Under the pieces are notes generated by a model that had not been told where the DNA came from, did not search any database, and worked only from the letters and a program-made list of their open reading frames with translations. Both the position numbers and the translations under genes were made by a program. From a virus (Duplodnaviria; Heunggongvirae; Uroviricota; Caudoviricetes), in the IMG/VR virus record IMGVR_UViG_2974540528_000001, positions 1 to 33,168 of that record: a DNA stretch of 33,168 nucleotides; one strand, 5' to 3'. This document shows positions 12,832 through 30,577 of this stretch, piece after piece. Positions within the stretch are counted from its first letter, which is position 1. Every line of letters starts with the position of its first letter.

Positions 12832-14325
12832 TTAGATTATCTGTAGGAATGTTATATTATCAGTATCGATAGAGAATACTTCATCCATCCCTGCAACAAC
12901 ATCAGAGGTTGTATAAGAAGTATCAGGATCCCCGACGTTCTTGACATCCACATAAAGTTGTGTAAATCTACCCGCAGAGATAGAAGAACCTACAGCAGAT
13001 ACAAGCTGGATGTTGTATAAGGTGTCAGCAATGTTAAGCGGGTCAATAACCCCTTTGAGAGCGGACTTTATAGTATCCTGTTCAGTGGTTGAGAGGACCT
13101 TTCCCTTATAACGGACACGGATAGCCAAATCCCTTGCCTGTGCCTTGCTGTGATAAATTCGTTCTGTCTGATTATCCTCAGTGGGGACATCATAAAAAAC
13201 ATTACCATAGGTAGCGTTAGACAAAGCAATTGAATTATAAAGTGCCTTACTGATGTCCTCAGTAGACCCACCATACACCACTGTCTCAAACTTGTGCGGG
13301 GGTATCCCGTTCTGGTCTGTAACCCCTGTGTTATTTGAGAAGATTTTAACCTTACTTACACCACTCACGCCAAGGACAGCACTCACCACCGCAGGTCTGG
13401 TCGCAGCAGCACTCGATGCTGTTGTGTTAGAAGCCCTGACCTTGTATTCGGTGTCGGTCTCAACATCTGTGCCCTCCGTGAAGGCATTCATGTTGTTAAG
13501 GCTGACGAACCCACTAGGGGTTGGGGAGATCGAAGTTACTGTATTTTTCTCTCGCGACAGTTCACCTGCCTCGACAGCAACAACATCCATTGTGATTGTA
13601 CGCTCACCAACAATCGGCGATGTTCTGAAATCAACACGGCTATTAAGGCCGATCATTTCAAGATTAGTATCATACCCAATGTACAATGCCCCGTTTTGAG
13701 AGTCAATGATGATTCTATCATTATTAAGCTCGGAGGTATTGTTGACAATAAAGCTCTTGACAGATGCCATGAAAGTGTTAAGCTGAGAGCTATTAGGGGT
13801 TTTATTGGTCAGTTGAATGGTTGTTTGACTTGTTGTTCCGGTGTTTTGATTATTGATCTGGAAACTATAAGTGCCTACAACCCAGTCCTTATTGAGAATT
13901 TTTTGTGCCAGTATGTTACCAGCAAGGGCGGTGTCGTCATTTAATACAAATGTACCACTATCAAGTGTATATGTGTTTTGGGCATATACCATGTTGTAAG
14001 GGACAGTGTTGTTAACTGCCATCTCAACAGAACCTGAACTTTTTGTCTTTCCTCGACGATAAACACCCCTTCGGGAAAGAAGTTCGTCAAGATAAATACC
14101 CTCAGCCCCCGCAAGGGTCTGAGCAGAATAGACGGAAGCTGCCAGAAGGATAATCTGGTATTCCCTTTCGTTAAAAATTGTTGTCAACTTGTCAGCAATT
14201 GTGTTAGCTTGTGTGTTGAAATTTTCACCAAAAGTTCTGATAAGGGTCTGTTTTGTGTCTGCGATAAGGTCATCAAGAGAGGGGATAGTGAAACCGTAAT
14301 CGCTCAATCCATATTGAGTTGCCAA
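12832..14325 (-). CDS. baseplate J-like wedge protein (497 aa, TTG start)
   Basis: AEGIYLDEL, G.DVETDTEYKVR, LGVSGVSKVKIFSN.TG..D.NGIPPH.FE.VVYGG are baseplate J motifs; AAAGGAGG RBS before TTG. Confidence 0.9.
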   Translation of the reverse strand: MATQYGLSDYGFTIPSLDDLIADTKQTLIRTFGENFNTQANTIADKLTTIFNEREYQIILLAASVYSAQTLAGAEGIYLDELLSRRGVYRRGKTKSSGSVEMAVNNTVPYNMVYAQNTYTLDSGTFVLNDDTALAGNILAQKILNKDWVVGTYSFQINNQNTGTTSQTTIQLTNKTPNSSQLNTFMASVKSFIVNNTSELNNDRIIIDSQNGALYIGYDTNLEMIGLNSRVDFRTSPIVGERTITMDVVAVEAGELSREKNTVTSISPTPSGFVSLNNMNAFTEGTDVETDTEYKVRASNTTASSAAATRPAVVSAVLGVSGVSKVKIFSNNTGVTDQNGIPPHKFETVVYGGSTEDISKALYNSIALSNATYGNVFYDVPTEDNQTERIYHSKAQARDLAIRVRYKGKVLSTTEQDTIKSALKGVIDPLNIADTLYNIQLVSAVGSSISAGRFTQLYVDVKNVGDPDTSYTTSDVVAGMDEVFSIDTDNITFLQII

Positions 14326-14360
14326 TTCGTCCTCCTTTCAGGACCATGATTCTTTTGTAT

Positions 14361-14389
14361 ATTTTACCATACGTGACAGTGTTTTGCAA
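14361..14389 (-). promoter_or_regulatory. sigma70-type promoter with extended -10
   Basis: On the - strand: TTGCAA, 17 bp, TAAAAT preceded by TGG. Confidence 0.75.
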
Positions 14390-14413
14390 ATAAACGGAGG
14401 AAGGGCATAAATG

Positions 14414-14437
14414 AAAAAACCACCCCGGAGGGTGGTT
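14414..14437 (-). terminator. rho-independent terminator
   Basis: On the - strand: AACCACCC-TCCG-GGGTGGTT-TTTT, overlapping the stop codon of the 275-aa gene. Confidence 0.85.
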
Positions 14438-15263
14438 AGTTGCCGGACAAAGAATCTTCCAAGACTGAAAGGCGCTTGTCCAAGTCCTCCTGAATTACAA
14501 TGGTTGCTCTAAGTATCCAAAATAAAAGCTCTTCTTTTCTAAAAGCGAACTCTTCTCCTGCCGGGGTATTCCCATTCGCCTCCCAGCTATCGTAGCAGAA
14601 AGCTGAATACTTTGTCCAATCAAGACCATACTTGAGCATGACCTTAATAGCATCCTGCACAGTAGGTCCTGAGTGAAGCCTGGCAGCACCCTTCTCAGAA
14701 GAATACTTAGACAACCATTGCCATACAGAGTCTAGCTTCCCAATTTCATAAAAAGCTTTTGCTTCTGTAGGTGTAATTTGTCGAAGATTTGTTTTCTTCT
14801 TTTTATTTGAGGTGGAGATCACACTGTTAACTGCATACACTTGACTCCAACGCAGGGATGTTGTACCGTTGGACAGTACATTATCTGTCTTGGGAGAAAA
14901 GGATGCTGAAGGAGTTGATATCTGAACTCCATAAGTTCTTTGCACAGGACTTATAGAAATGGTATCAACATGTGATCCAATCTCATTCCCGGTGGTGGAG
15001 AAATAGTATAAATTCTGCCAACTATTAGAAAGACTGTCCAAAACTTGCTGGACAGTGGCCCCTGAGTGGGTTCCGATAAGAGATGCACCGGTGATCCCAG
15101 TCACCTCACCCCTTTTCAGGATGCCGATGTCTGTAATAAATTTTCGTATAGTTGTTTTCTCTGTGTCCAAAGATGATTGGATTATTATCTCATCCGTGTC
15201 GGAAACTAATTCTTTATCATTAAGGTTTTTTATCTTAATGATTGGTATATCAGTAGTGGCCAT
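14436..15263 (-). CDS. short tail-spike-like protein with C-terminal peptidase S74 intramolecular chaperone domain (275 aa)
   Basis: N-terminal module shared with the other spikes, then FSPKTDNVLSNG..SLRWSQVYA..SVISTSNKKKK, W.W..K...KG.ARLH.G, GLD...Y...CYDSW...AGEEFAFR.EELL and a terminal coiled coil, as in endosialidase-type ICDs. Confidence 0.8.
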   Translation of the reverse strand: MATTDIPIIKIKNLNDKELVSDTDEIIIQSSLDTEKTTIRKFITDIGILKRGEVTGITGASLIGTHSGATVQQVLDSLSNSWQNLYYFSTTGNEIGSHVDTISISPVQRTYGVQISTPSASFSPKTDNVLSNGTTSLRWSQVYAVNSVISTSNKKKKTNLRQITPTEAKAFYEIGKLDSVWQWLSKYSSEKGAARLHSGPTVQDAIKVMLKYGLDWTKYSAFCYDSWEANGNTPAGEEFAFRKEELLFWILRATIVIQEDLDKRLSVLEDSLSGN

Positions 15264-15310
15264 TTTTCAATCTCCAAATCACTCCCAAGAAATGTTAGTA
15301 GGCGGGGCGT

Positions 15311-15332
15311 AAAAGGGGCATCTCTGCCCCTT
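15311..15332 (-). terminator. probable rho-independent terminator (GAGA tetraloop)
   Basis: On the - strand: AAGGGGCA-GAGA-TGCCCCTT-TT just after the large spike gene; preceded by a T10 run. Confidence 0.7.
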
Positions 15333-15346
15333 GAAAAAAAAAACAT

Positions 15347-18300
15347 TTACGATATAACCCTCCCTCTCACTATCTGATGCACAAAGTAAGACGACAGCAT
15401 CTCAATCATCACTCTGTTATGGCTTGAGACAGTTGTTGGCATACCCGTCGCAAGACGTGGAGAGTGGTCATAAAAACGCCCTGATGAATAAGGATTAGCC
15501 AGGAAATCCTTTTCATATGCCTGAATACAGGCAAGCAGGGCATTACCGGTAGATACTCGTCGAACCAGCATCATTGTCAACGCCACACTAACTGGAGTTG
15601 AGATAATACCTCTACGACTTTCAGAAAGAATGAAGTCAATGGTGCGAATACGCCCATCACCACACAAACCCTGAAGTCCGTAGTTGACGTTGTTAAACAG
15701 AGGCGTTCCACCAAGTAACTCAGTCATCATGAGGTATTCAGGTGCCAGATCTATATCATAATTGTACCAACGGCTACGAGCCAATGACGTACTAACTGGC
15801 ATTGAATCCAGCATAGATGGTAAATAACGCCCAACGGTACTGCTATTAGTTAGGTTAGTCATCACCGTGTTATAGCACGACTGGTACGAACCATCAGTGT
15901 CCATTTCAGCGTGAATTGCTAGTGCTACAAGCATCATACTGTATATGTTGATGTTTACTGCATCACTGACAGAAGCTGACGTATACGTATTTGGCACACC
16001 CCCTTTTGCTGCGACTGCCGTCACCATCGCATCAGCCCAAGATTTAATATACGGTTGCATGGCCGTCATCGTTGTAGTATCACCAACGAACTCAGCTGCA
16101 CGATAGATAGAAACACAAGGCTTGAATACAGTAGCCACTAAGTCAGCTACATGCAGTACACCTTCTAAATATCGCGTTCCGATATTTGTGCTACGCCAGT
16201 TATCATCCCAGCACCGTTTAAATCTTGCCCATACTGCCGAAATATTAGGAGACGGCTTTTGCAGTTCACGATACGCAAGATATCCCCACGGGGTCTTCGC
16301 ATCATACTGTCCAGCATTCACATCCATACCACCGATCCCGGCTGAATCACCATTCATCCAGAAGTCAGCCACACCTTCAAGCAATTCACGAAGTTTACGC
16401 TCTGCTTCTTTAACTGCAAAGTTTGGAAGTTTGCCCTCACGAGCAAAACCAACCGGGCGGTTATAAACTTTCTTCGCAAGTGTCAGCGGGTCAGATTCTG
16501 TTTCATAGGCATTCAGCCAAATCTCGATTGGCCACGTCCAGTTTTTCTCTACTGGCCAGTTCAGTAAAGAGTAGTCAGTAAAGGAGTAGAATTGCCACCC
16601 GGTTGTGACACCTAGTGTCAAAGTCTGTGAATTATTGGTCATGGATATACCAGCAGTTCTTGTTGGCCCACCAGCTGTACCATCCCTATGTAAGTCACCA
16701 TTTACAATGGTAGGTACATAAGAGAATTTACCACCACCAGCAGTATTACCATTGGTAATTGCTGCTGCTGCTGATCCTGCATAGACAGGGGTTGTCCCGG
16801 ACTGATATGCAATATTTGAGCTAATGGTTTCGCCATACATTTTACCAACAGGGATTTCCTGAAGCGCTGTAACCGTATTCTTAACGATGACCACACCGTT
16901 CTTAAAGATACGATACCGTGTAGTGGCTTTAAGAATACCAGCCTCATAAATGGCACTGGCAGCATTGTAACCAATACGTTCAACCTCGGTAAAAAGTGGA
17001 CCGGAATTGATGACCTTCAGCGTAACGTTATTGGAGAAATACTCGATAACCTGAGCACCTGCGTTCACATAGCGATGCTGTGGGCTAAGTGTGCATCTGA
17101 TACGGTTGGTATCGTCATTTTTAGCAGCATCAATGGATGTAAGGCCATAAGCTCCACCAGCAAAAGCAAAACGATAATACAAATCGCCTACTTTAATGTT
17201 ATAACGCTTCAAGGCATCAGTAGGTGCATAATATTCAAGCCCCTCTGTATAAACAGTATCGTCGTAACGATAACCATAAATATCAACGTTATAATATTTC
17301 TTTTGACCTGCTGCTACAGAGTCAACGATCCATACTGAGCCAGTTTTGAACGATCCATCGGGGTGATAACCTTCATTTGACTGAAAGCGAAGGTTAACGA
17401 AGTCATCAGCAGAGAACTGAGCATCGAACACATTTCCATCTGAATCAGAAACCTTAATGCAGTTATGTCCATAGACCAAGCCTTCAGGGAAACTTACCTT
17501 TAATTCAATAAGCCCACTATAGTCAGCCGAGGTATCATTTGCTGCATCCGTAACAAAACGAGTAAATGGATTGTTATCAGACTCTAAACGAGAGATCCCA
17601 TTGTAATAAAGGATATCAGCATCAATGGTCAGATAAGCATTTACAGAAATGGTTACAGGTTCAGCACCTAATTTTGCCAGGAAAGTTGTTTTATACTGTG
17701 AAACGTCTGTACTTCTGTAATACAGATTGACATCATCAAAAGAATCATAGAAGTAGGATTTCACCCCTTCCTCTGTAAGGTCGTATCCAGCCCCAGTGAT
17801 AGCAGAATACGGGAATGTCAACGCAATCGCCGTTTCGCTCGGGGTACTACTACCATATAATGCGCAGTAGTTGCCATCAGTTCCATATTCACCAGGTGCC
17901 GCTGAAATAAACCCACCGGACTTATCAATAACAGCATAAGAAGTGATCGAGCTATAGGTATTGATAAGCGGAACATTAGTAAAAATTGCTCGGGCAACTG
18001 AATTGGTCGCATCAAGCAGCACTGTTTCAGGTCTTATTTTTGCCAACTGTACTGAGTGATAAGGTGAGTTCAGAACGTTGTCAGCGAAATATTCCGCAGG
18101 AAGCAATTCAGCTACAACAGTGGTTACACCACTTTGCAGCTCTGTAACTTTCAAAGTATTTTTCTGGTTACGGGCGTTTGACGTTTCAGCAGCGGACAGG
18201 GAGTTAATGCGTAAAACGGATTCTTTACCTACATTAACTACAGTGTCACCAGGTGCGGTAATGCTTGTAAAGGAAGTCAACGGGAGTGAGGAAAATTCTC

Positions 18301-19276
18301 CAAGTAAAGCATTGGTTCCACTAATCTTACCATCCAGCTCACTATAAGATTTATTTACTCTGTTTTCAACACCTGCTTCCGACGGTATTCTTGCTCCCGT
18401 TTCTTTCATCGTTCCTGAGGCGTTTATCACCTCTACAGAGAGCACGTTATCATCGGTGCTGCGGTAAAATGCAGTAGAGCCAACCAGAATATTTCCAGCG
18501 TCCGCATCAGCCTGCGCTGCCTCTAATGTTTCATATCCCCGGATAGTCTTTATAATCGCCCCAGCACTAGGTACAGCCGCAACTTCTTGAGCAACCCCTG
18601 CATTATTCTTGTAAACTTTGAACGCTACAGAACTACCACTTCCCTGAGGGACTTGGAAATATTGCCCATCCGTAGTTGCAGCAAGACCTTCACTAACAGA
18701 GGCATATAAGTTTCCCAGCTCAGAGGCCTGCAATACATATGCCTGAGCCTCATCTCTCGCATCCCCTGCTTGGTCTTTTGCCTCAACTGCTTCATTTTTG
18801 ATCTCGGTTACTTCATCTAGCAGACTTAGTCCGCCAACCGTAATCCATCCAGATCCTGTAGTGGATGGTGTTAACCCAGCAGACACAGATTTTGGAAAAG
18901 TACCCGACCATGTGTAACATTGCGCCCCCGACATATGCCAAATAGCATCGGTTGTGTAGGTAAGGGTCGCTCCTTCCTCAAAAGAACCGTCCACAAGTGT
19001 CAAACCAAGGTCGTGCAGTGCTCTTCTCCAAAGCTCTCTTGTGTTTGCGCGGTCGGTATCAAGACTCTTCTGAACTCCCTGTCCATCTTCTGTGCCGATA
19101 ATAGCAGCCCCACCAAGTCCTGTCAAGGATGATTTATTTGCCAAGTCAAGGTCTGAGATAACCTGAAAGGCAGTGGCCTTTTTGGTCTTATCTGGTTGTT
19201 CTACAACAAGGTAGTCGTCTCCGACCACTTGGGTTGCGGAGGGTAACTCCGCAATTTTAATTGTATCAAAGGCCAT
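15347..19276 (-). CDS. large tail spike / receptor-binding protein, putative polysaccharide-degrading enzyme (1309 aa)
   Basis: True start ATG 19276 (GGAGGG RBS). Has the N-terminal KIAELPSAT module, a tailspike head domain (RELWRR...LVDGSFEEGATL...YTWSGTFPK), YASVSEGLAATTDGQYF and YETLEAAQADADAGNI repeats typical of enterobacterial phage spikes, and a large C-terminal beta plus alpha-helical region. Confidence 0.85.
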   Translation of the reverse strand: MAFDTIKIAELPSATQVVGDDYLVVEQPDKTKKATAFQVISDLDLANKSSLTGLGGAAIIGTEDGQGVQKSLDTDRANTRELWRRALHDLGLTLVDGSFEEGATLTYTTDAIWHMSGAQCYTWSGTFPKSVSAGLTPSTTGSGWITVGGLSLLDEVTEIKNEAVEAKDQAGDARDEAQAYVLQASELGNLYASVSEGLAATTDGQYFQVPQGSGSSVAFKVYKNNAGVAQEVAAVPSAGAIIKTIRGYETLEAAQADADAGNILVGSTAFYRSTDDNVLSVEVINASGTMKETGARIPSEAGVENRVNKSYSELDGKISGTNALLGEFSSLPLTSFTSITAPGDTVVNVGKESVLRINSLSAAETSNARNQKNTLKVTELQSGVTTVVAELLPAEYFADNVLNSPYHSVQLAKIRPETVLLDATNSVARAIFTNVPLINTYSSITSYAVIDKSGGFISAAPGEYGTDGNYCALYGSSTPSETAIALTFPYSAITGAGYDLTEEGVKSYFYDSFDDVNLYYRSTDVSQYKTTFLAKLGAEPVTISVNAYLTIDADILYYNGISRLESDNNPFTRFVTDAANDTSADYSGLIELKVSFPEGLVYGHNCIKVSDSDGNVFDAQFSADDFVNLRFQSNEGYHPDGSFKTGSVWIVDSVAAGQKKYYNVDIYGYRYDDTVYTEGLEYYAPTDALKRYNIKVGDLYYRFAFAGGAYGLTSIDAAKNDDTNRIRCTLSPQHRYVNAGAQVIEYFSNNVTLKVINSGPLFTEVERIGYNAASAIYEAGILKATTRYRIFKNGVVIVKNTVTALQEIPVGKMYGETISSNIAYQSGTTPVYAGSAAAAITNGNTAGGGKFSYVPTIVNGDLHRDGTAGGPTRTAGISMTNNSQTLTLGVTTGWQFYSFTDYSLLNWPVEKNWTWPIEIWLNAYETESDPLTLAKKVYNRPVGFAREGKLPNFAVKEAERKLRELLEGVADFWMNGDSAGIGGMDVNAGQYDAKTPWGYLAYRELQKPSPNISAVWARFKRCWDDNWRSTNIGTRYLEGVLHVADLVATVFKPCVSIYRAAEFVGDTTTMTAMQPYIKSWADAMVTAVAAKGGVPNTYTSASVSDAVNINIYSMMLVALAIHAEMDTDGSYQSCYNTVMTNLTNSSTVGRYLPSMLDSMPVSTSLARSRWYNYDIDLAPEYLMMTELLGGTPLFNNVNYGLQGLCGDGRIRTIDFILSESRRGIISTPVSVALTMMLVRRVSTGNALLACIQAYEKDFLANPYSSGRFYDHSPRLATGMPTTVSSHNRVMIEMLSSYFVHQIVRGRVIS

Positions 19277-19742: not shown

Positions 19743-21563
19743 TTATACCCCGTTCACTCTTGAAATTTCAGTCCACCCCTGACGAAACGCAAAGTTTGTC
19801 GCCATGAGAGTTATCGTACACGCCGCAGTTACTGCACCACCAGGTAGGAATATATTCCCGCCCGTAACCAGGCGGTTTGCCGTATCAGGACAACGAACAA
19901 CCATCTTCTTACCAGTATGGCAGTAACCAAGGCTGCTAACTAAACCACTGGCCTGGAAAACGTATCCCTCATCTATGCCAATGGGGTCGTATCCACTAAC
20001 CAGTGAGCCAACGGCGTTCTGATTGTTTTGTAACTTCAGTACAATCTTGGATTTTCTCCGTGACTCGGTAGTCATATCAGCATTAACATGAATCAAGCCT
20101 GTAACCGCCCCCTGCTGCTGTTTGACTGTAATGTCAGCCTTGACACTTGAACCAGTGACATTAAACAAGGCAGTCTGGTTTGCTGCTGTAATAGTTCCAA
20201 GCACTGTCAGGTCATCGATGGTCACTTGGCAATCGTATAGAATATCAATGAACCTGTTTGGGTCTGCCACTCTCGGTGCCTTAATGTTCACTACGGCATC
20301 ATTTTCGATACTAATCGGAGCAACCCCATTATCACCTAGTCCATTGACATGCATCATGTCGATGTCGATAACGGCACCCACGCAGCGAGTTGCAGAAACC
20401 CAGTTATCACGGTGTATCCTGAACCATTTTTTTGCAGTTTGCCCTGAAGTATCCGAAGGACTCATGTAAGAACCACCGCGTAATGATAAATGACGCGAGT
20501 TGCTTTCAATAAACCATTCGGTGATGTTCGCCGGGTGGCTGACAAACGGATTATCTATTTTGATAGATTCTGCCAACGTGCCATTGATGGATACGACTGG
20601 GTATTTAGCTCCAGAAGCCGCACCTCTAGAGTTATTCTCAAATTTAGGCATAGATGTAAATGCGATGTTGTTTGACCGCCCAGTAATCGAAATAACGCCA
20701 GTAAGGTTGTTCTCAAAATGAGGTGCAATGAATCTGATAGCGTTGCAGTTATCGTATTTCCCTCTGAACATGATGGGATGTGTAAAGATATCACTAGCAT
20801 TAGCTGGATTATGTAGATTACCACAACTGTTGATACGTAAGTTATAGAACTGAGTATCAAAAAGGTCATCAGCAACGATAGCAGAAAGCCCAGCACTCCA
20901 TACATGTACCGTATCAAAAACACAATCCCAACCAACACCACCCAGATAAAACACCGGGCGTAAAGTAACGCCATCACCCAGGAAAGTAAAGTTTCGCAGG
21001 TGAACTTCAAATAAGGTTCTTGTGGCGTTGCTTACCCATGATGGGCTGGAGAAATCGAAGAAGTACTTATATTGCAGCTCAGAAGAATTTGCTTCTGGGT
21101 GCGGAGTGAATACGGTCTGATACATCCCTGACCCTTCCCAGTACACAGTACCTTTTGTGACTTTTACCGTTTGTTTTAGGTAGTATTTTTTAGCCGCAAA
21201 CCTGATCCCTACGCGTGGGGCGCGAGTGGTGGTTCCGCTGTTAATTGACTCAGCAAAATTTACTGCGGCCTGGAATGCTATTGCGTCGTCGTAAACACCG
21301 TCCCCTTTGGCTCCAAACATTTCAAGAGTGACCCAGTAAATGGCGTCTGCAACCGTACCTCCTTTCGGTAAACCCACCTTACTCGCTCCATCAGGCTGGG
21401 CCAAAGCCGCCAGCACCGACTGTTCAACGGTATCTTCAAGGTGGCTAAAAACTTGAAATAAAGTTGCCTTCTTTGTATTGTCTGGTTGATCAACTACGAT
21501 CAGGTCATCTTCTGTTAGAGTGGTCGCACTTGGCAACTCTGAAATTTTAACACTCTGTAGCAT
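19743..21563 (-). CDS. tail spike depolymerase with parallel beta-helix (pectate-lyase-3-like) domain (606 aa)
   Basis: VTLEMFGAKGDGVYDDAIAFQAAVN is the canonical beta-helix N-cap; followed by Asn/Ile/Val ladders; N-terminal KISELPSAT module. Confidence 0.9.
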   Translation of the reverse strand: MLQSVKISELPSATTLTEDDLIVVDQPDNTKKATLFQVFSHLEDTVEQSVLAALAQPDGASKVGLPKGGTVADAIYWVTLEMFGAKGDGVYDDAIAFQAAVNFAESINSGTTTRAPRVGIRFAAKKYYLKQTVKVTKGTVYWEGSGMYQTVFTPHPEANSSELQYKYFFDFSSPSWVSNATRTLFEVHLRNFTFLGDGVTLRPVFYLGGVGWDCVFDTVHVWSAGLSAIVADDLFDTQFYNLRINSCGNLHNPANASDIFTHPIMFRGKYDNCNAIRFIAPHFENNLTGVISITGRSNNIAFTSMPKFENNSRGAASGAKYPVVSINGTLAESIKIDNPFVSHPANITEWFIESNSRHLSLRGGSYMSPSDTSGQTAKKWFRIHRDNWVSATRCVGAVIDIDMMHVNGLGDNGVAPISIENDAVVNIKAPRVADPNRFIDILYDCQVTIDDLTVLGTITAANQTALFNVTGSSVKADITVKQQQGAVTGLIHVNADMTTESRRKSKIVLKLQNNQNAVGSLVSGYDPIGIDEGYVFQASGLVSSLGYCHTGKKMVVRCPDTANRLVTGGNIFLPGGAVTAACTITLMATNFAFRQGWTEISRVNGV

Positions 21564-21595
21564 CTTTTATTTACCCCTCTTCTTAACATTAGTAC

Positions 21596-21624
21596 ATTTT
21601 ACCACAAAGTTCAAAGATTTAAAA
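21596..21624 (-). promoter_or_regulatory. extended -10 promoter upstream of the depolymerase gene
   Basis: TGTGG-TAAAAT on the - strand with a weak -35 (TTTTAA), in an AT-rich intergenic gap. Confidence 0.55.
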
Positions 21625-21683
21625 GAACAATGGTCTGCCTTAGGTAGCACAGACCTAAAAGAAATCTTGAATTGTAATAATTT

Positions 21684-22298
21684 TTATTTTATGGTGTTTA
21701 TCGTCTTATCAGCGGGGGTGACTACCGGATCACTTTTTCTGGTCAGAAGGGTCCCTGGTGGTACAGGGTTTGCCATATCACCCGCCCAAGTATTCCACCA
21801 AGTTGCATCACCAGTCTTAGGTAATCTAAAATTGATAAGGTAGTATAACTTATTCCCCCAAGGTATCCAACCCTCATCTCCGCAAAGTGTTGTTGTTTCA
21901 GGGTTTGGCGTCGGGTAGTAGTAATCATCAGCACCCACGAAGGCTATTCTTACAATCTCCTGCTCTTTTGTTAAGACTTCAAAAAAGGCAGAATAGCTTC
22001 TTGTTGTATGGTCCATTACAGACTGGAAATCTGCAATTTCTAAAACATCCGGTTCAAGACGGGTTATTTCCTTTATCTTATTATCAAGGACCGTCTTCAT
22101 AACTTTTTTACTTATGTAGGTTCTGTATGGAAATCCAAAGGTCTCATCAAAATACCAATCCCCTGCCCACACATTAAACCTTAGCCATAAGCGCTGTCGT
22201 AGACTTACCTGATTGGATTCTATCAACTGGAGGCCTGTAGAAACATCAAGATCTCCAGTAACAGGATCCATCAAGAAGTCAGAATAAAGAGTTGCCAT
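21684..22298 (-). CDS. baseplate wedge subunit (gp25/gpW-like) with C-terminal extension (204 aa)
   Basis: DPVTGDL...RQRLWLRF..WAGDWYFDETFGFPY pattern; follows the spike gene. Confidence 0.8.
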   Translation of the reverse strand: MATLYSDFLMDPVTGDLDVSTGLQLIESNQVSLRQRLWLRFNVWAGDWYFDETFGFPYRTYISKKVMKTVLDNKIKEITRLEPDVLEIADFQSVMDHTTRSYSAFFEVLTKEQEIVRIAFVGADDYYYPTPNPETTTLCGDEGWIPWGNKLYYLINFRLPKTGDATWWNTWAGDMANPVPPGTLLTRKSDPVVTPADKTINTIK

Positions 22299-22307
22299 CT
22301 ATTCCCC

Positions 22308-23009
22308 TTATGCATTTGGAACATCGGTATTGTTCTGACCACCATCATCTGTCCAAGTATAGTGATGTGTATGGCGAATAAAATAATCATAAAAATCATT
22401 CATATTTACACCACGCGCAGTAATAATATTACCATCAGGGGTGACTTGAGCGCCATTCATCTTAATCGTACCACCAGATTCTGCTGTCAGGTTTGCCGCC
22501 CCATTATCGAACTTGAAATTCCCAGATTGGTCAACTACTAATTTACCTACTGGCGTCTCCAGCGTGAAATCACCCGCAGGCGTCATTGAGAAATGCACCT
22601 TGTCGTTCCAAAGTTCAACATTGTCTGGATCGATCGTCATGGCATTCCCATCGCTGTGAACACCAATTATCGCCCACCCAGGAAACATATTGTGAGTTGT
22701 CTGGTCATTATTATCATTCTCATTTCTTTCTGAGAAGCTCAGACCCACAATATCACCAGGTTTCACAGGAATCGTTAGGCGGGCTTTTCCTCCATTACCT
22801 GAAGGCATTGATAGGGGAACATCAAAAACAGAACCATAGGCATCCACGGTGCCATCTGGGAAGTTTGTACTTGCAAGGGGCTGAACTGTTGCAGACGGGA
22901 TGCTATAGTCTACATCAACTACCGTTGCCCTTAGCCCTGTGTGAATATCTCTGGCCTGTTTTGCAAACCATTGATTAAGGGCTGCATCCATACGGGTTAT
23001 TGCTGCCAT
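22308..23009 (-). CDS. baseplate central spike (gpV/gp138-like, 233 aa)
   Basis: TAATG-coupled start at 23009; OB-like N-terminus (ATVVDVD..ATVQP, IPVKPGDIVGLSFSER), beta-repeat needle, C-terminal HTH (HxH) metal-binding tip. Confidence 0.9.
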   Translation of the reverse strand: MAAITRMDAALNQWFAKQARDIHTGLRATVVDVDYSIPSATVQPLASTNFPDGTVDAYGSVFDVPLSMPSGNGGKARLTIPVKPGDIVGLSFSERNENDNNDQTTHNMFPGWAIIGVHSDGNAMTIDPDNVELWNDKVHFSMTPAGDFTLETPVGKLVVDQSGNFKFDNGAANLTAESGGTIKMNGAQVTPDGNIITARGVNMNDFYDYFIRHTHHYTWTDDGGQNNTDVPNA

Positions 23010-23998
23010 TAGGCCTCCACAATTCCACCACGGGTTTCTGCAAGTCCTAACTCTGTGATCCAATCCCCACCTTCGAGTTGGCCTTTGTGAGTTAAGTATA
23101 CAACCTTGTAAAAACCTGTGTATTTCTGGCTCTTTAAAAATACAGTTGATTCTGGTATGATTGCACCATTCATTTCTGTTACCACCACCAACCCCGCGTC
23201 CTCTTTTATCTCTGCGGAAGTGGGTACGTGAGGCTTAGAGGATTTTTTCTTAGACTTGGCCCTTTTTTCCTTTCTCCTCTTTGCAGGCTCAGGGTTCTGT
23301 GGCGTTGGTGAATCATGCATTCCAGATTCAGCACTGATCTCAAAAACTGCCCTTTGAAATCTTTTCCCTTGCGTGGTCCAATATACAGCCCCATCTTGAA
23401 CACTGAAAGTAGATCCTGTATTCTTGGCTAATCTCTCTAAGTTATTTGCGGCAAGTCCTGTAAAGGACATAGAGTGCTGGAGCGTTTGGTCGCCAAACTT
23501 GACGATCTTCCCAATGGGGAGCTTCATATCAGAAGCAAGGTCACTGACCACCGTGTCTATTGGCGTACCTTTCTTATAAGAGCGAGAGGTCTTTGCCGTT
23601 TTAATATTTACTGTTGCATCCCCGAGGATCATCTTTGTCTGACGGGTATTGCCGTCCCACTTATCCTGAACAAACTCTACGGTCCCAGAAAAGATAGTCT
23701 GATTCTCGCCATCAAACCCGGCCTCAAGAACGATCGCAATGGACTCACGTTGGTTAGCATCGAGGTAGCTCACCGTCTCATCGGAGAGGTTGTAGATGGT
23801 AACATAACCCTTATTAGGCTCCTTCGAATTGTCCTTCTTGACCTCAAACTCGATGTTTGCGGCACCAGTTTCATTACTGATATAATACGCATCTTTAGCA
23901 TTCTGGTTGGTATAGTCCGATATATTGGTAGGCTTTTCACCAACATACACTGGTTTACCTATCGTCAGCTTATAGGTTCTTGTTCTGTAAGCAGGCAT
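23009..23998 (-). CDS. baseplate hub protein (329 aa)
   Basis: Sits between the tail-tip genes and the spike; ITIYNLS..., LEAGFDG..IFSG, FSVQDG and H.G...GGDW.TE are hub motifs. Confidence 0.85.
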   Translation of the reverse strand: MPAYRTRTYKLTIGKPVYVGEKPTNISDYTNQNAKDAYYISNETGAANIEFEVKKDNSKEPNKGYVTIYNLSDETVSYLDANQRESIAIVLEAGFDGENQTIFSGTVEFVQDKWDGNTRQTKMILGDATVNIKTAKTSRSYKKGTPIDTVVSDLASDMKLPIGKIVKFGDQTLQHSMSFTGLAANNLERLAKNTGSTFSVQDGAVYWTTQGKRFQRAVFEISAESGMHDSPTPQNPEPAKRRKEKRAKSKKKSSKPHVPTSAEIKEDAGLVVVTEMNGAIIPESTVFLKSQKYTGFYKVVYLTHKGQLEGGDWITELGLAETRGGIVEA

Positions 23999-24001
23999 TG
24001 T

Positions 24002-24355
24002 TTACTCCTCATCGGTTGTTACCTCATCATCAGGAGACGAGTAAAGTAGTTGCAAGTCTGACAAAAATCCAATATTGTATCTCCCTACACGTTTAGTGGA
24101 TTGAGTAAAAGAAAATACTCTCAACTGACCATCGGGAATATTGTCAAGATATTTGAAAGGCGCGAATATATCGAAAATTGTAGTTAATTTGAAAGATATT
24201 GTAGGCTCAGAACCCACATCCCCGAAATAGACAAGCCAAGACTCGTCTCTTTCGTTCCATTGAAAACGCATTTCATAAGTTTGGCTGTCCAGAACCACAC
24301 GCATCGTCTGATCAGCAAAACCGTCTATGTCCCAAGAAAATGTGATCGCTGCCAT
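24002..24355 (-). CDS. baseplate/tail-tip organisation protein (117 aa)
   Basis: VVLDSQTYEMRFQWNERDESW pattern; conserved position before the hub. Confidence 0.7.
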   Translation of the reverse strand: MAAITFSWDIDGFADQTMRVVLDSQTYEMRFQWNERDESWLVYFGDVGSEPTISFKLTTIFDIFAPFKYLDNIPDGQLRVFSFTQSTKRVGRYNIGFLSDLQLLYSSPDDEVTTDEE

Positions 24356-25227
24356 TAGTTACCTACCGCTTTATTATAGTCGAGGGTATTTCCATTCAGA
24401 TCCTTGAGTTTACCGTCCGGCGTCAGTGTTCCCACCACTTGATCTTGCTTGGTATAATCCCCAATGCCCATATCGTTTGCAACCTTTTGCCAACCATCTT
24501 GGTTAGGTCCGGCAAACTTGGTTCTCCTTGCGGTGACTTCTACTTCATCGTCAGTGGCGGAAGACTGAACAGCGCCTTTCTGTTTTGTTTTTCCGCCTGA
24601 CTTTTTAGGGTCTGTATACACCGTAGCCAAGGCTGTCTTCCCAAGAGTAAAAGTACGGAACTCAGTAAACTCAAGTTGAAAAACCAGCGCTGCCCCATCT
24701 GAATTGCTGCGGCTTGCTTCCAAAGAAGTCAAGATATAGTTTTCAATGATGCGGTCTTCCGTTACAAGCGTAACGATTTGGCGATCAGTGATGAGCCTTT
24801 CCAAAACCTCCAAGGCCTTTTCTGGGCGTCGGGATTCTACCGGGTTGTTAGGATCGGTGTCTTTGTCGATGTAGTTGTTCTCAATCATGTAGAGTGGCGA
24901 GCTATTGATTCTCGCACTGAAAGAGAATTTACCATCCTCTATCACACCATGATCACTGTATTTGACCTTATTCTCTACTGCGTAGGAGGTTTTGTCAACA
25001 GTTCTTGTATACGTATGGTCTTCAACGACATCAAATAAAATCGCAATATTGTCCGTATAGTTTTTATTTTTTAATTCTACATTCCTTCCGCCATTGTTAA
25101 GGCCGCTTGCAAACAAAGTATATTGAACTTCACTACTGGCATTCTGAGCCGTAGAGACTTTTTGCTCAACGTTTGCTGTAGCCTTACCTTGTTGCGGTTT
25201 GGACTGGTTGCTTGCTACAACTGCCAT
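24355..25227 (-). CDS. tail tube initiator / distal-tail-like protein (290 aa)
   Basis: FD.V..H.Y.....T.YAVE....YSDH...E and VTLVT...I.ENY.LTSL..SR; directly downstream of the tape measure gene; GAGGAGG RBS. Confidence 0.75.
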   Translation of the reverse strand: MAVVASNQSKPQQGKATANVEQKVSTAQNASSEVQYTLFASGLNNGGRNVELKNKNYTDNIAILFDVVEDHTYTRTVDKTSYAVENKVKYSDHGVIEDGKFSFSARINSSPLYMIENNYIDKDTDPNNPVESRRPEKALEVLERLITDRQIVTLVTEDRIIENYILTSLEASRSNSDGAALVFQLEFTEFRTFTLGKTALATVYTDPKKSGGKTKQKGAVQSSATDDEVEVTARRTKFAGPNQDGWQKVANDMGIGDYTKQDQVVGTLTPDGKLKDLNGNTLDYNKAVGN

Positions 25228-25253
25228 AAAACCTCCTCAATAAGCTTGTTATG

Positions 25254-25282
25254 ATTTTATCATAAATCTTCAAATAAAACAA
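25254..25282 (-). promoter_or_regulatory. sigma70-type promoter with extended -10
   Basis: TTGTTT, 17 bp, TAAAAT preceded by TGA, on the - strand. Confidence 0.65.
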
Positions 25283-25283
25283 C

Positions 25284-25305
25284 GAAAAAGGGGCCGAAGC
25301 CCCTT
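25284..25305 (-). terminator. rho-independent terminator (UUCG tetraloop)
   Basis: On the - strand: AAGGGGC-TTCG-GCCCCTT-TTT, right after the tape measure stop. Confidence 0.9.
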
Positions 25306-25308
25306 GTA

Positions 25309-27717
25309 TTAATCTGGGACACCAAGGATTAAATTGATGTTACCCATATTCGATGCTTCGATTTGCTGGTCAATCATATCCTTCAGCTCTCCAGCATCCA
25401 GTTTGATAGTTATTTCTCCAGAGACAGGCTCGGTAGGAATAACCATCGGAGGGGTAGCAGAAGACTTACCATTCGCCCCAGGCATCTGATTGTTCAGATA
25501 ATCCAGGGTTGCCTTATCAGGACCCCAGAGGTTAGAGAACCAGCTTCCTGTTTTTCCACTGACAATGCTATCATGCACATTGGAGAACACTTTACCACGC
25601 TCTTCGTTGAAGTCGCTGTACGGATTATATCTGTCGTTAAGTTCAGATCCTAAAGTGAACAGGGACAGCAGTCCACCTAAGGAACCCGCTCCTTTAAAGA
25701 ACTTACCTACACGAGAGAATCTACCGCCCTTAGCAGGGCCAGCTCCACCACCCTCTCCACCTTTAGGTGTGGCCCCATCGCCTTTACCAAAAACAGCACC
25801 AATAGTCTTGATCGCCCCAGCTAGGCCAGCGATCTTAGCTAGGATGTTGAACACCCGGACCAGGGATGTAGCAAAGAATATAGCACCTATACCCCAACCA
25901 ACCCAGTTCCATGTCTTAGAAATTTCTTCGCCATTCTTCCTGAACACGGGAATATATCTCTCTAAGATAGCATTGACCATTATAAAGGCGTTATACAAAG
26001 CATAAGGTATCTTCATAAATCCGTCTATGAATCCTGCGACAAACTGACCCACGGCAGCGGCGAGTGGACCATTAGAATCCAAGATTTTGGCAAGAGTGTT
26101 AAATGTCTCTGTCATCTTATCGCCGAAACCAGATTCGAAGATCTTGTTCTGGAAGTTCATCCAAGTCTGGGTAAGGCGTTGCATAGCAACTCGGTTACCT
26201 TGTAAAGCTTTCTGTAGTGCGCCACCCTTGTTAGCAGCTTCTGCGTAGTATTTAGCAACAAACGGAAGCACTTTAGCAGCCTTCAGCTCCCCGTTCTTCA
26301 TCATATCCATCAATTTGGTAACGTCGATGGTGGAGTCGTTGAATGCTTCTTGCGATGCCTTTATGAACACCTGTAATGATCCGGGGATGCCTTCAGCAAG
26401 CTGTTGCTTAAGTTCTTCAGCCATGATCTGGCCTTTACCCATCATCTGTTGAATAGCTGTAATACCGCGTTGGTATTTTACAGGGTCAACCTGAAGGGCA
26501 GTTGCATACTCAGAGAATGACTTGAAGAGCTGATCGTTTTGTGATTTAGTAAGTACACCGTTTGCTGCGATGGACATCTGGGTATAACCCTGTGCAGCTA
26601 CCTTAAGGTCGAGACCTAAACGATACGCCTGGTTTCTCACAAATTCAATACGCTTACCAGCCTCTGCGGAGTCATCGGATACCATCAGCATTGTTGCTTC
26701 CATACCCTGGAAGAACTGCCCAGTTTTCAGAACGCTTGCAGCGGCGTTGAATGCTCCGTATGCGGCTGTAACGCTGATCAATGTACTACGTAAAGTTCTC
26801 AGACCATCATTCAGGGAAAGAGTATTAGCGCTGGCCTTACGAAGTCCAGTTTCCATAGAGGCAAGTTCTGCACGGAAATTTGATGCCTTCATGTTCCCGC
26901 TCTTCATGTATCGGTTAACTAAGGAATCATAGCCTGGTAATTTCCTTGCATATTTATCACCATACTTGGCACGAAGACGAACATTGGCGTTAGAGATTGT
27001 GCTAATCTTCGCTTCACGTGCTCTTGCTCTTCTCCCAGCTTCCCGCTCTGCGTCGCGGGCCATTTTCTCTCTGGCCTTATTGTCAGCCTTATCCTGTTTT
27101 ACTTGTTCTCGGCGTATTCTTGCATGGTCACGTTCCATTGCCTTGCGTTGCTGTTCAGCAACTTTCGGGTCATAAGCCGTAGCATTTGCATTGAGAATCG
27201 GAGATCCTCCGCCCTGAGAACCTTTATTTTTTAGACTCTCTTCATATGCTGCCATGCGAGCGGCAGCGATAGAAGGATTCGTACCATACGTGCCATTCTT
27301 AGCCGCAAGCTTTTCTTGTTGACGCAGTTGAGCCTTTAAAGCATTATAGTTTGCCTGAGATTCTGGAGAGCGTCCAGCCGTTAATCTCGATACGGCCGCT
27401 TTTCTCCTAGCCTTTTCAATCTTATCAATGGCTTCACGAGCACGAGCTTCTTTCTTTGCCATTGCGATATTGTGAGCTGTGGTCTTAGCCGCCTCTGCAC
27501 GTTCAGTTTGATTGAGTCGTTTATTAACCATTCTCGCCTGCATGGCAGAACGTTTCAGGGCAGCAGCAGGGTCGGCCTTAGCAGAAGAAAAAGCCTTCCC
27601 GGTCTTTTCCCATTCGGAACGAATTTGCTTTACAGCTTTCAAGGCGCGTCCAAAGGACGTTTTGTCAACGTCCCATGTTACCTTGTTGACTGTAGAAGTC
27701 ACTATAATATTTGCCAT
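25309..27717 (-). CDS. tape measure protein (802 aa)
   Basis: Long Ala/Arg/Lys-rich helical protein with a tape-measure domain (IEFVRNQAYRLGL...AQGYTQ...IQQMMGKGQIMAEELKQQLAEGIPG); follows the tail assembly chaperone. Confidence 0.93.
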   Translation of the reverse strand: MANIIVTSTVNKVTWDVDKTSFGRALKAVKQIRSEWEKTGKAFSSAKADPAAALKRSAMQARMVNKRLNQTERAEAAKTTAHNIAMAKKEARAREAIDKIEKARRKAAVSRLTAGRSPESQANYNALKAQLRQQEKLAAKNGTYGTNPSIAAARMAAYEESLKNKGSQGGGSPILNANATAYDPKVAEQQRKAMERDHARIRREQVKQDKADNKAREKMARDAEREAGRRARAREAKISTISNANVRLRAKYGDKYARKLPGYDSLVNRYMKSGNMKASNFRAELASMETGLRKASANTLSLNDGLRTLRSTLISVTAAYGAFNAAASVLKTGQFFQGMEATMLMVSDDSAEAGKRIEFVRNQAYRLGLDLKVAAQGYTQMSIAANGVLTKSQNDQLFKSFSEYATALQVDPVKYQRGITAIQQMMGKGQIMAEELKQQLAEGIPGSLQVFIKASQEAFNDSTIDVTKLMDMMKNGELKAAKVLPFVAKYYAEAANKGGALQKALQGNRVAMQRLTQTWMNFQNKIFESGFGDKMTETFNTLAKILDSNGPLAAAVGQFVAGFIDGFMKIPYALYNAFIMVNAILERYIPVFRKNGEEISKTWNWVGWGIGAIFFATSLVRVFNILAKIAGLAGAIKTIGAVFGKGDGATPKGGEGGGAGPAKGGRFSRVGKFFKGAGSLGGLLSLFTLGSELNDRYNPYSDFNEERGKVFSNVHDSIVSGKTGSWFSNLWGPDKATLDYLNNQMPGANGKSSATPPMVIPTEPVSGEITIKLDAGELKDMIDQQIEASNMGNINLILGVPD

Positions 27718-27727
27718 AATTTCCTCA

Positions 27728-27763
27728 ATAAAAAAGCCAGGCTCCTGAAAAGGAACCTGGCTT
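27728..27763 (-). terminator. rho-independent terminator between chaperone and tape measure genes
   Basis: On the - strand: AAGCCAGG-T-TCCT-TTTC-AGGA-G-CCTGGCTT-TTTTATT. Confidence 0.8.
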
Positions 27764-27767
27764 GAGA

Positions 27768-28154
27768 TTAACCTCTTCTGCCTTTGCTTCGGGGTTTAGC
27801 TGCTTCGGCGTCCGCTCTCGATTTCTCTTCTTTCTCATGAACATCGTTGATGAAATCTTCGACATCGAGATACTCGTTTAGCTTAAGCAAATATTCCATA
27901 TCGGCAGACTCAAGGGAGATATAAGACTCTCCCTTAAAGTTCTTCAGAGCACGGCACCAGAGATAGTCGAACCACGTCAGGGAACTATTTTTTCTTGCAT
28001 AATCAATAGCTCTTTGGACGACTTTAGAAATTTTGGACGGTGTTACTCCGCTGCCACTTCCGTCGGTTCCTGATCCACCGTCGCTACTTGGTGAACCATC
28101 CCGAAGTTGCCCAGAAGTCCCTGAAGGTCTGCGAAACCGTCTTTCGTGAAAAAA
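27768..28154 (-). CDS. frameshift-accessed C-terminal extension of the tail assembly chaperone (gpT/gpGT-like); missing from the ORF track
   Basis: The -1 frame has a TAA just upstream of the slippery site T TTT TTC (28154-28148) and is then open to TAA 27770-27768 (...GVTPSKISKVVQRAIDYARKNSSLTWFDYLWCRALKNF...PRSKGRRG). It has no usable start codon near its beginning. Confidence 0.85.
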   Translation of the reverse strand, partial: FFHERRFRRPSGTSGQLRDGSPSSDGGSGTDGSGSGVTPSKISKVVQRAIDYARKNSSLTWFDYLWCRALKNFKGESYISLESADMEYLLKLNEYLDVEDFINDVHEKEEKSRADAEAAKPRSKGRRG

Positions 28155-28522
28155 CAGCCGTAGTTAATCTTCAGAACCTCCGCTACCAATTTGATCAGGT
28201 CCAACATCTTGTCCTGGAAGACCGTATCAATATCAATCTTGCCAGCCATTCCGTTCACAGACACATCTTCAAGGATGAGTTCGAATAATTTTTCGATATC
28301 ATCTTGCTCCATCTGCTCAAATAGGTATAGAATTGCGGTAGGTAGTGCTTCAGAGAGGTTAGACCCTCCGGTAAACAATGCACCACTAATAGTAGCCATT
28401 GGAACTGCGATATAACGACCAATCTTCGGAAGGTTTTTCATAACCTTGGACGGAGACCAGTGTGTGATTACAAAGTTCTTACCAGCCAGATCGATTTCTG
28501 TGGTAGGTCTAAAATTCATCAT
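28043..28522 (-). CDS. tail assembly chaperone (gpG-like, 159 aa)
   Basis: AGGAG RBS before ATG 28522; lies between tube and tape measure; acidic helical protein with INYGCFF at the slippery site. Confidence 0.88.
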   Translation of the reverse strand: MMNFRPTTEIDLAGKNFVITHWSPSKVMKNLPKIGRYIAVPMATISGALFTGGSNLSEALPTAILYLFEQMEQDDIEKLFELILEDVSVNGMAGKIDIDTVFQDKMLDLIKLVAEVLKINYGCFFTKDGFADLQGLLGNFGMVHQVATVDQEPTEVAAE

Positions 28523-28603
28523 GTGTACGCTCCTGCGTCTTTTAAGGTTGTTATATCCATGCGTGTTTGAAAAGGCCACATCCTTGTGGCACACGAAACG
28601 CTA

Positions 28604-29077
28604 TTAGACGATACCTGCAAGGCCAGCCAGACCGAAGCCTGTAGCGTACAGAGTATCTGGGCTTAACCATGCGTCCAGGATTCCGATTTCCCAATCCATC
28701 TGGCCAACTTCAGTACCGTAGGTCAGGTCAGGCTGTTTCTGAATCCAACCAACTGTGCTCAGACCCATACCTTGGGAGCCTTCAAGAAGGACAGGGAAGA
28801 AAATCAGGCCAGTGATGGAAGCTTGTTTCTGCCAGTTAGCCAAGTATCCGTTCCATACCGAAGTGTTCTGTAGAGAGACCGTCAGGACACCAGATTGGTT
28901 ACGAGACAGCGCTGCTGACAGTTCACCATCAACCCCCATGTGGGGGATGATGTTATCTTCGTTGCGAGCAACGACGATCTTGGTATCCGCTGCGAACCCA
29001 GTGACGCGCTGAGTCATCATATAGAGACGCGCTTTCTGTGGGTCGTAAGCATACGGGGTTAAAATTCTAGTATCCAT
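28604..29077 (-). CDS. tail tube protein (157 aa)
   Basis: YDP.K..L......VTGFA.DT.I...RNED.....G.DG pattern; follows the sheath. Confidence 0.88.
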   Translation of the reverse strand: MDTRILTPYAYDPQKARLYMMTQRVTGFAADTKIVVARNEDNIIPHMGVDGELSAALSRNQSGVLTVSLQNTSVWNGYLANWQKQASITGLIFFPVLLEGSQGMGLSTVGWIQKQPDLTYGTEVGQMDWEIGILDAWLSPDTLYATGFGLAGLAGIV

Positions 29078-29080
29078 TTA

Positions 29081-30577
29081 TTACACTCCTGCTGTTACTT
29101 GTCCGCTGGAAGAAGTAGACCCGGTTTTGTCTAGCAGAACAGAGATGCGGATCTTGACGAAATGCAGGGCGCTGTTGTAGACTAGCTCTACCTTAACGTT
29201 GTTAAGAGTACGAGATGCCAGATCATTAGATGGTATGTTTGCACGAAGCGGGATTGTTACAACCGGATCGTAGAACACCTTGTTGACGGAATCATACCCG
29301 GTCAGAATAGAACCGTTGGTGATACCGGTATTCAGAGGACTATTCATCAGGACTGACTTCAGGTTCGGCAGATCATCATCGCTCATTTTCATGGACAGGC
29401 CAAGATTAGAACGGCGAGACATGTAAGCGAAGATACTTTCTTCACTTCTGAACTTCAGCCAGTGACCAAAACGGACAACATCGACATACTGACCGGAGGC
29501 ACACTTACCTTCCCAGAATGCGCCGACACCATTAATCATACGATAGAAGTTCAGGTTCTGGCCCCAGATAGCTGGACGCTCAGAAGAACTCAGGGTCGGA
29601 GCAATAACACCCGGCATTGTCTTCAGGTGGATTGAGTCACCATAGGATGGGTCATTAGATGCCATTGCACCGATGATACCACCTTCAGGGAATGCACTAT
29701 CAGCAAGCGGGTCATACATACCAATGCTAGTATCATACTGAAGTGCTTTCAGTTGATTAGCAATAGAATCTCCGTCGACAACTTTTGACAGCGGATCGGA
29801 TGTTGAATAGACGTGCAGCTTATAGTTAGCAGCAGCATAAGCAGCAGCTCCCAGAATTGCAGAAGAAACGTGTTGTTCTGTGCTCAGGAAGTACCAGTTG
29901 CTGTTTGCAGTTTCGACCTGTGGTAGAACACCGCTTACAGTCTCAGTTGAGTTGTTAGTCAGTGTGCAATCACCTGAGTCAATACCGATGCTGAATGGCT
30001 CGCCGATAACATCAGAAGATGTTGCCATGATGCCTTGGTCAGATTCGGTTGTAACCACCTCATCATCGTTAGTAGCCAGCAGAGAGCCATCACCTTTCGG
30101 AGTGATTGTTACAACACCAGTTGTAGCTACTGCACCGACAATTACATTAAGCGTGGTATCGGAGTTGATTGCAGATGCCAGGGCTGTTGCAATACTCTCT
30201 GGTGTAGATGCGGTAGTAACAGGAATAACGATGCTTTTAGTATACGCACCTGCTGCAACGTTGAAACTTACTGGGTTATTAGGATCTACGTTAGTCTGCC
30301 CTGTGAAATCGATAACTGTTGATTCCCATGCTTGCCTTCCGATCATAAGCGCTTGGGGGCGGAAAGTCCCAGCAAAGGCTTTTGTCGCAAAAGTATACGC
30401 AGGGGAACCTACAGCGAAACCATCAGCAGCGAGTTCATCCAGATCTGTATATGTACGTACTCGTTCTGGGAAAACGTTGTGAATTGCGATAAATAGAGGG
30501 GTTTCAAACCCTACGGTGTCGATTGGTTGTGTCCCGAGAACAACCGTTACGTCAACAACCTTATCATTATAAGCCAT
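29081..30577 (-). CDS. tail sheath protein (498 aa, DUF3383-like)
   Basis: VGFETPLFI...ERVRTY..., K.MPGV...LS, G..ASGQYVDVVRFGHWL, IP...DLASR.L...V...Y..A.H.V.I are contractile sheath motifs. Confidence 0.93.
   Translation of the reverse strand: MAYNDKVVDVTVVLGTQPIDTVGFETPLFIAIHNVFPERVRTYTDLDELAADGFAVGSPAYTFATKAFAGTFRPQALMIGRQAWESTVIDFTGQTNVDPNNPVSFNVAAGAYTKSIVIPVTTASTPESIATALASAINSDTTLNVIVGAVATTGVVTITPKGDGSLLATNDDEVVTTESDQGIMATSSDVIGEPFSIGIDSGDCTLTNNSTETVSGVLPQVETANSNWYFLSTEQHVSSAILGAAAYAAANYKLHVYSTSDPLSKVVDGDSIANQLKALQYDTSIGMYDPLADSAFPEGGIIGAMASNDPSYGDSIHLKTMPGVIAPTLSSSERPAIWGQNLNFYRMINGVGAFWEGKCASGQYVDVVRFGHWLKFRSEESIFAYMSRRSNLGLSMKMSDDDLPNLKSVLMNSPLNTGITNGSILTGYDSVNKVFYDPVVTIPLRANIPSNDLASRTLNNVKVELVYNSALHFVKIRISVLLDKTGSTSSSGQVTAGV

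Follow-up and report, generated by a model that had tools for sequence, protein, structure and literature searches.

A short portable motif on the tail sheath and sheath initiator of a Mydovirus: a candidate docking site for spike and fibre modules

Background

Two tail proteins encoded in one stretch of phage DNA, the tail sheath and a gp25-like sheath initiator, carry the same short peptide, which raises the question of whether this peptide is a place at which the phage attaches its spikes and fibres. The stretch (33,168 nucleotides of IMG/VR record IMGVR_UViG_2974540528_000001, referred to below as the window) covers the tail region in the 147-kb genome of a Klebsiella-type phage, a Mydovirus (Vequintavirinae); its sheath is 100% identical to that of phage Mydo, its initiator is 100% identical to that of KpS8 and Seu621, and its gene order is shared with the Mydovirus tail module. 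An earlier note on this DNA had proposed that the two peptides dock the KIxELP module, an N-terminal element of spikes encoded nearby. At the level of sequence, we find the motif to be a discrete, non-core and portable element, whose presence follows the presence of the module and whose absence follows its absence, and we give a probability of roughly 0.6 to the reading that it is a portable docking peptide (a 'socket') for the KIxELP module of phage spikes and fibres.

Two tail proteins carry one motif

The two carrier proteins and their relevant parts are as follows.

29081 to 30577, minus strand: tail sheath of the phiTE/phi92 type, 498 residues (PHROG 205; PDB 9cb9 and 21vm; structure model and fold search)
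30002 to 30085, minus strand: 28-residue clade-specific insertion in sheath domain D3 (residues about 165 to 192; by alignment, in 4 of 106 sheath clusters)
30029 to 30079, minus strand: motif copy 1, sheath residues 167 to 183, net charge -5, the top genome match of two independently trained profiles
21684 to 22298, minus strand: gp25-like sheath initiator, 204 residues (PF10934; PDB 9mjn sheath initiator, E-value 9e-70), whose gene comes after that of the baseplate spike
21687 to 21785, minus strand: optional C-terminal tail of the initiator (residues 172 to 204), absent in homologues of 173 to 177 residues
21699 to 21749, minus strand: motif copy 2, initiator residues 184 to 200, 22.2 bits with an out-of-genus profile

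Both peptides lie on the minus strand where the earlier note had placed them, in sheath residues 166 to 183 (30029 to 30082) and initiator residues 184 to 200 (21699 to 21749). The pattern that it had written for them by eye has only these two matches in the six frames of the 147-kb genome, but its alignment of the LL and VVT residues is one residue off, and the protein that it had called a wedge, although gp25-like, is the sheath initiator (PF10934, PDB 9mjn). In 91 initiator homologues the motif is an ungapped 17-mer, roughly h-h-T-x-D-G-x-x-h-h-T-x-D-G-x-x-h, with a period of eight residues, and the register based on these homologues aligns sheath residues 167 to 183 with initiator residues 184 to 200.

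We scored the motif with two profiles. The first was trained on 40 initiator tails from outside Mydovirus, with this phage left out; it placed the sheath segment first among the 99,551 sequence windows of the genome (31.2 bits, compared with 22.2 for the phage's own initiator and 12.9 for the best unrelated segment), and its score for the sheath was reached by none of 5000 shuffles of the protein and none of 20000 shuffles of the insertion. The second, trained solely on insertions in a podophage nozzle protein, also ranked the sheath segment first (14.8 versus 3.5); the initiator copy, which is more basic and more divergent than that of the sheath, was not ranked by this podophage profile. Because two independent profiles rank the sheath segment first and shuffled sequences never reach its score, chance does not account for the similarity between sheath and initiator: as judged from these scores, the two segments are truly homologous or have converged on a single motif family. 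The DNA of the two copies is identical at just 22 of 51 positions, which rules out that the initiator tail was recently duplicated into the sheath. The motif matched no Pfam or PHROG family, no solved structure matched either motif or module by sequence, and a feature-atlas search with the initiator tail gave a weak lead (0.77).

Neither segment belongs to the core of its protein, as had been suggested. Sheath residues of about 85 to 210 form the external D3 domain (in the model, a beta-sandwich that includes one helix, with a fold match to 9cb9), and the insertion within it is absent from 102 of the 106 sheath clusters and from the phiTE structure; the four clusters that have it are confined to the Mydovirus clade, are all 498 residues long and are 88 to 94% identical to the window sheath. 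The insertion contains two full and one degenerate eight-residue repeats (the third, partial repeat scores 10.4 bits), and is modelled between two strands of the well-predicted sandwich as a low-confidence loop (predicted local distance difference test [pLDDT] below 50 over residues 163 to 190). The initiator tail is optional: alignment of homologues shows it to be absent from phiTE, Av-05 and many other relatives, and in a model built without an alignment it has a pLDDT of only 23 to 38. It appears to follow a conserved segment equivalent to the phiTE 'rip-cord' helix.

Motif and module occur together

The genome holds exactly three KIxELP modules, which begin proteins of 606, 1309 and 275 residues encoded downstream of the initiator.

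21414 to 21563, minus strand: KIxELP module of the 606-residue beta-helix spike (gene 19743 to 21563)
19127 to 19276, minus strand: KIxELP module of the 1309-residue spike (gene 15347 to 19276)
15114 to 15263, minus strand: divergent module of the 275-residue protein (gene 14436 to 15263), which has a C-terminal S74 chaperone

The first 60 residues of the 606-residue spike are identical to those of the Seu621 K23-type depolymerase (PMC8381472). The module is widespread (223 representatives at E-values up to 0.001), with two to five module genes per phage in the Mydovirus clade versus one or two in relatives, whereas the 275-residue protein is, at full length, essentially restricted to Mydovirus.

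Comparing motif presence with module genes among relatives, a check that the earlier note had named, gave concordance in all 25 related lineages: 15 have a module gene together with the motif in the initiator tail, 10 have neither, and no lineage has one without the other. Eleven of these loci had been picked by their initiator tail before the neighbouring genes were viewed, and absence was scored on whole records for three phages and over at least 9 to 10 kb downstream for the remaining lineages. On a tree of initiator cores, with the tail excluded, the pattern takes five changes, at least three of which are forced by well-supported branches. In rV5, two tandem motifs accompany two module genes.

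Among unrelated phages, we searched 84 viral loci chosen by the module alone with a profile trained on Vequintavirinae, and found the motif at 12 bits or more in 51 of them (shuffled controls gave 4 and reversed controls 2). Its hosts in the podophages and siphophages of this set are a protein of about 400 residues, proteins of 70 to 90 residues, a J-type tail protein and a nozzle like P22 gp10. In the first, which is encoded after the capsid gene and from that position is probably a head-tail adaptor, the motif is an internal insertion; in the 70 to 90-residue proteins it stands at the C-terminal end, as it does in the J protein, whose gene is immediately upstream of one for a module; and in the gp10-like nozzle it makes up a clean indel in a single loop. 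Two motifs and two modules are the usual complement of one podophage family.

Within 8 kb of the nozzle gene, motif and module did not co-occur significantly in the nozzle family (Fisher p 0.47 to 1.0), most of these loci being short fragments. Podophage records that are at least 90% complete comprise six with both motif and module and two with neither. Two module-bearing podophages that have no nozzle insert (one record at least 90% complete, one partial) carry the motif on another gene, at 26.5 and 20.3 bits, and the two complete podophage genomes that have no module also have no motif (maximum scores 3.6 and 6.4 bits). No natural fusion of motif and module was present among 150 module proteins.

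A proposed socket and known spike adaptors

The claim that the motif docks the module has in its favour that the motif is exposed, non-core and tracks the module both in relatives and in unrelated phages; the binding itself we infer. In the mechanism that we propose, phages would graft the motif into loops or C-termini of various structural proteins, and its partner would be the KIxELP module of about 40 residues that begins many spikes and fibres. The motif has hydrophobic patches at three points, spaced by eight residues and with Asp/Gly-type turns between them, and may fold as a small beta-meander; this period with its turns would favour strands over a helix, the structure models being of low confidence over both motifs. 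One motif peptide would serve one spike trimer, gripped by its three N-termini; Sf11 and phiTE offer structural precedent for such a grip, though with helices. Because the initiator motif follows the segment that in phiTE completes the N-terminal bundle of the long fibre, it would hang at the fibre-bearing baseplate rim, and the six initiator tails would hold spikes along this upper rim. The Mydovirus clade would then have acquired another copy of the motif, on the external D3 domain of its sheath, and with it many more sockets, fitting its larger set of module genes.

The precedents are close in principle and different in detail. In the Shigella siphophage Sf11, an adaptor helix of the distal tail protein gp17 holds the tailspike gp13, with six spikes per tail (PMC12724387), so that there, as proposed here, all three N-termini of a spike trimer are gripped by one short stretch of a structural protein that forms a hexamer; unlike the Sf11 four-helix bundle, the window motif has 17 residues, is probably beta-rich and occurs on many host proteins, and no sequence relation between the two was detected. 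In phiTE, the rip-cord helix of the sheath initiator is the element that completes the long tail fibre's N-terminal bundle (PMC11972413; PDB 9cuy and 9mjn). This is the same initiator family, with a C-terminus that already serves as an arm for fibre docking at the rim of the baseplate, but the phiTE initiator stops at the rip-cord helix and has no module genes nearby, whereas the motif is an extra extension beyond the helix and would give that arm a second socket. The related phage phi92 has two module-bearing proteins (gp140 and gp143) and a long C-terminal arm on its initiator, but no docking motif is described there (PMC13450770), its motif candidates are weak and its sheath lacks the insertion; the fibre roots are not resolved in its cryo-electron microscopy maps of 2026 (PMC13450770).

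A further kind of receiving site is a folded domain on another spike. Klebsiella phage depolymerases have conserved N-terminal anchors, T4 gp10-like branching domains and interchangeable receptor-binding bodies. Sharing of the anchor is also described in bioRxiv 10.64898/2026.05.12.724579. In gp10-like branching the receiving site is such a folded domain, whereas here it would be a peptide motif that has no Pfam, PHROG or PDB match, and Pfam and PHROG scans, whose sensitivity is limited, found no gp10-like docking domain in the proteins tested. The putative socket would work like known spike adaptors, and none of the tests run places it in the helical or gp10-like kinds.

Alternatives to binding

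Several observations weigh against the socket reading. In Vequintavirinae the motif adjoins the first module gene, and a single deletion could take both. Motif and module counts are unequal (1 and 2 in PVP-SE1, 2 and 5 in AV124, and 2 and 3 in the window phage), and sockets must therefore be shared or further ones have escaped detection. The two modules of phi92 are accompanied by weak motif candidates only (below 9 bits), and NDO71, which does not have the 275-residue module, still has the sheath motif. The set of 84 loci has many near-duplicates, and the module-negative whole-genome control outside the subfamily consists of just two genomes.

Some of these observations would suit an account in which motif and module are one inherited cassette with no mutual binding, the motif binding a third protein or hitch-hiking as a linker. 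Physical adjacency of the two elements in Vequintavirinae and in several other loci, the finding that no protein carries both and the non-significant test around the nozzle gene are all as that account would have them. We nonetheless consider it improbable: the motif is also inserted internally into adaptor, nozzle and sheath proteins whose genes are kilobases away from those of the module; by inspection, no third gene is common to the loci of myophages, podophages and siphophages; and short fragments made up most of the loci in the local test, with concordance restored by searches of whole records. Because the podophage motifs sit inside genes kilobases from the module, the podophage whole-record results break the linkage objection in part.

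Two observations stand beside these. NDO71 also weakens the idea of an exclusive pairing between the sheath motif and the 275-residue protein. In phi92, gp142 (locus L035, 7597 to 9756; Calx-beta and TIM-barrel) ends in a motif-like C-terminal peptide right before the endosialidase gene; this peptide looks socket-like by eye, scores below 9 bits and is absent from the rV5 and Av-05 homologues.

Occupancy of the sheath copy

On its outer domain each sheath subunit bears a well-matching copy of the motif, closer to the family consensus than the phage's own initiator copy, and sheaths with as little as 88% identity keep the motif pattern. The D3 domain of phiTE is external, has no contact with neighbouring subunits and binds fibres; contacts between D3 and tail fibres are known from phiTE, A-1(L) and Bas63 (PMC11972413). 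Fibres anchored along a contractile sheath are already known from the hairy jumbo myophages CBB and phAPEC6 (PMC5259590, PMC7247149), so that sheath-borne spikes, of which the earlier note knew no description, would not be new as an arrangement alone. Both phages are unrelated to this one, and their fibre genes and anchors have not been identified. In phAPEC6 the sheath fibres occupy only three ring positions (PMC7247149).

The suggestion that spikes decorate the sheath has the conserved motif on D3 in its favour, but a full coat of large spikes is not supported. The text of three papers on Mydoviruses mentions no sheath appendages in negative stain, describing a 22-nm tail in KPP-1 and terminal overgrowths in Seu621 and KpS8, which counts against such a coat. 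Were large depolymerase spikes to cover the whole sheath length, on most of its approximately 140 subunits, the presence of a good motif on every subunit, a number of module genes that exceeds the likely needs of six initiator sockets (up to five in AV124) and the precedent of CBB and phAPEC6 would all be explained; we regard this as very unlikely, given the tail width and the strictly terminal overgrowths in those descriptions, and the ring rise in phiTE (38 Å extended, 16 Å contracted), which would be too tight for a large trimer on each subunit. At the other extreme, the motif would be a socket on the initiator while the sheath copy is idle, parks the retracted long tail fibre on D3 or binds a cation. 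This is unlikely, if less so than a full coat. The D3 fibre contacts in the three phages named above, the plain sheaths of the micrograph descriptions, the strongly acidic character of the sheath copy and an insertion whose invariance does not exceed that of the other D3 residues (52% versus 62%) would fit it, but the sheath copy matches the consensus better than that of the initiator and keeps its pattern down to 88% sheath identity, phiTE D3 binds fibres without the motif, and the clade that bears the insertion has the most module genes.

Because published tails are plain or have terminal appendages only, and ring spacing is tight, with the three rings of phAPEC6 as a precedent, we favour partial occupancy: the sheath sockets probably hold small trimers, for example of the processed 275-residue protein, or else are filled by larger spikes in just a few of the rings. 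The 275-residue protein is the best candidate for the sheath ligand, because it is essentially Mydovirus-specific and is expected to be small once its chaperone has been cleaved off. The widest form of the socket reading, in which motif and module are a general snap-on pair in myophages, podophages and siphophages and the Mydovirus sheath copy mounts receptor-binding or capsule-degrading proteins along the contractile sheath, which would identify the anchors of both partners, we put forward tentatively, as a possibility with the odds somewhat against it.

Further observations on module genes and their surroundings

A feature-atlas search with the module returned weak leads: unnamed clusters and, for the module at 21414 to 21563 of the window, spirochaete DUF685 proteins (0.87). 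Some proteins have two or three modules in tandem (P0236, P0238, P0241 and P0243). In P0297, P0314 and P0321 the module comes straight after an apparent signal peptide, which suggests that the module is also used in exported proteins, possibly outside the virion. A terminator-like hairpin and a sequence like an rV5-type late promoter separate the initiator gene from that of the 606-residue spike (window 21564 to 21683); the spike cassette may be transcribed separately.

Module genes are also rearranged among relatives. NDO71 has a fusion gene (locus L040, 5986 to 7914) with a 1309-type N-terminus and the C-terminal part of the 275-residue protein, joined at a short glycine-rich block after the modules. 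AV124 (L037, 23285 to 25274) and K18PH07C1 (L038, 22647 to 24636) have a 250-residue module gene and a 411-residue beta-helix-like gene inserted between the baseplate spike and initiator genes; in OY978784.1 (L038) the deposited annotation does not match the deposited sequence coordinates, and tail genes appear under metabolic gene names. At 12839 to 16625 of locus L046, two spikes that have no module share a different N-terminal block, pointing to a second attachment route. Elsewhere in the window, an NadR-like adenylyltransferase (3 to 1061) and a PnuC-like transporter (3050 to 3772) correspond to the two genes annotated for NAD salvage in phage Mydo.

Conclusions

Neither the motif family nor a module-socket pair was found in the literature searched, the coverage of which excludes subscription journals; relative to that literature, the motif family and its putative pairing with the module are new, and fibres on sheaths were already known. 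For the multi-spike attachment of rV5-like and phi92-like phages, the analysis names a candidate receiving site, and the pairing can be tested with a peptide of 17 residues and a trimer of 45 residues. In many uncultured phages the motif predicts where on the virion a module-bearing fibre would sit, whether neck adaptor, nozzle, tail tip, baseplate rim or sheath. If the sheath copy is loaded, this phage would carry on its sheath a protein whose anchor is identified, unlike those of the fibres in the hairy phages, and the motif would offer a compact natural tag for the display of proteins on phage particles.

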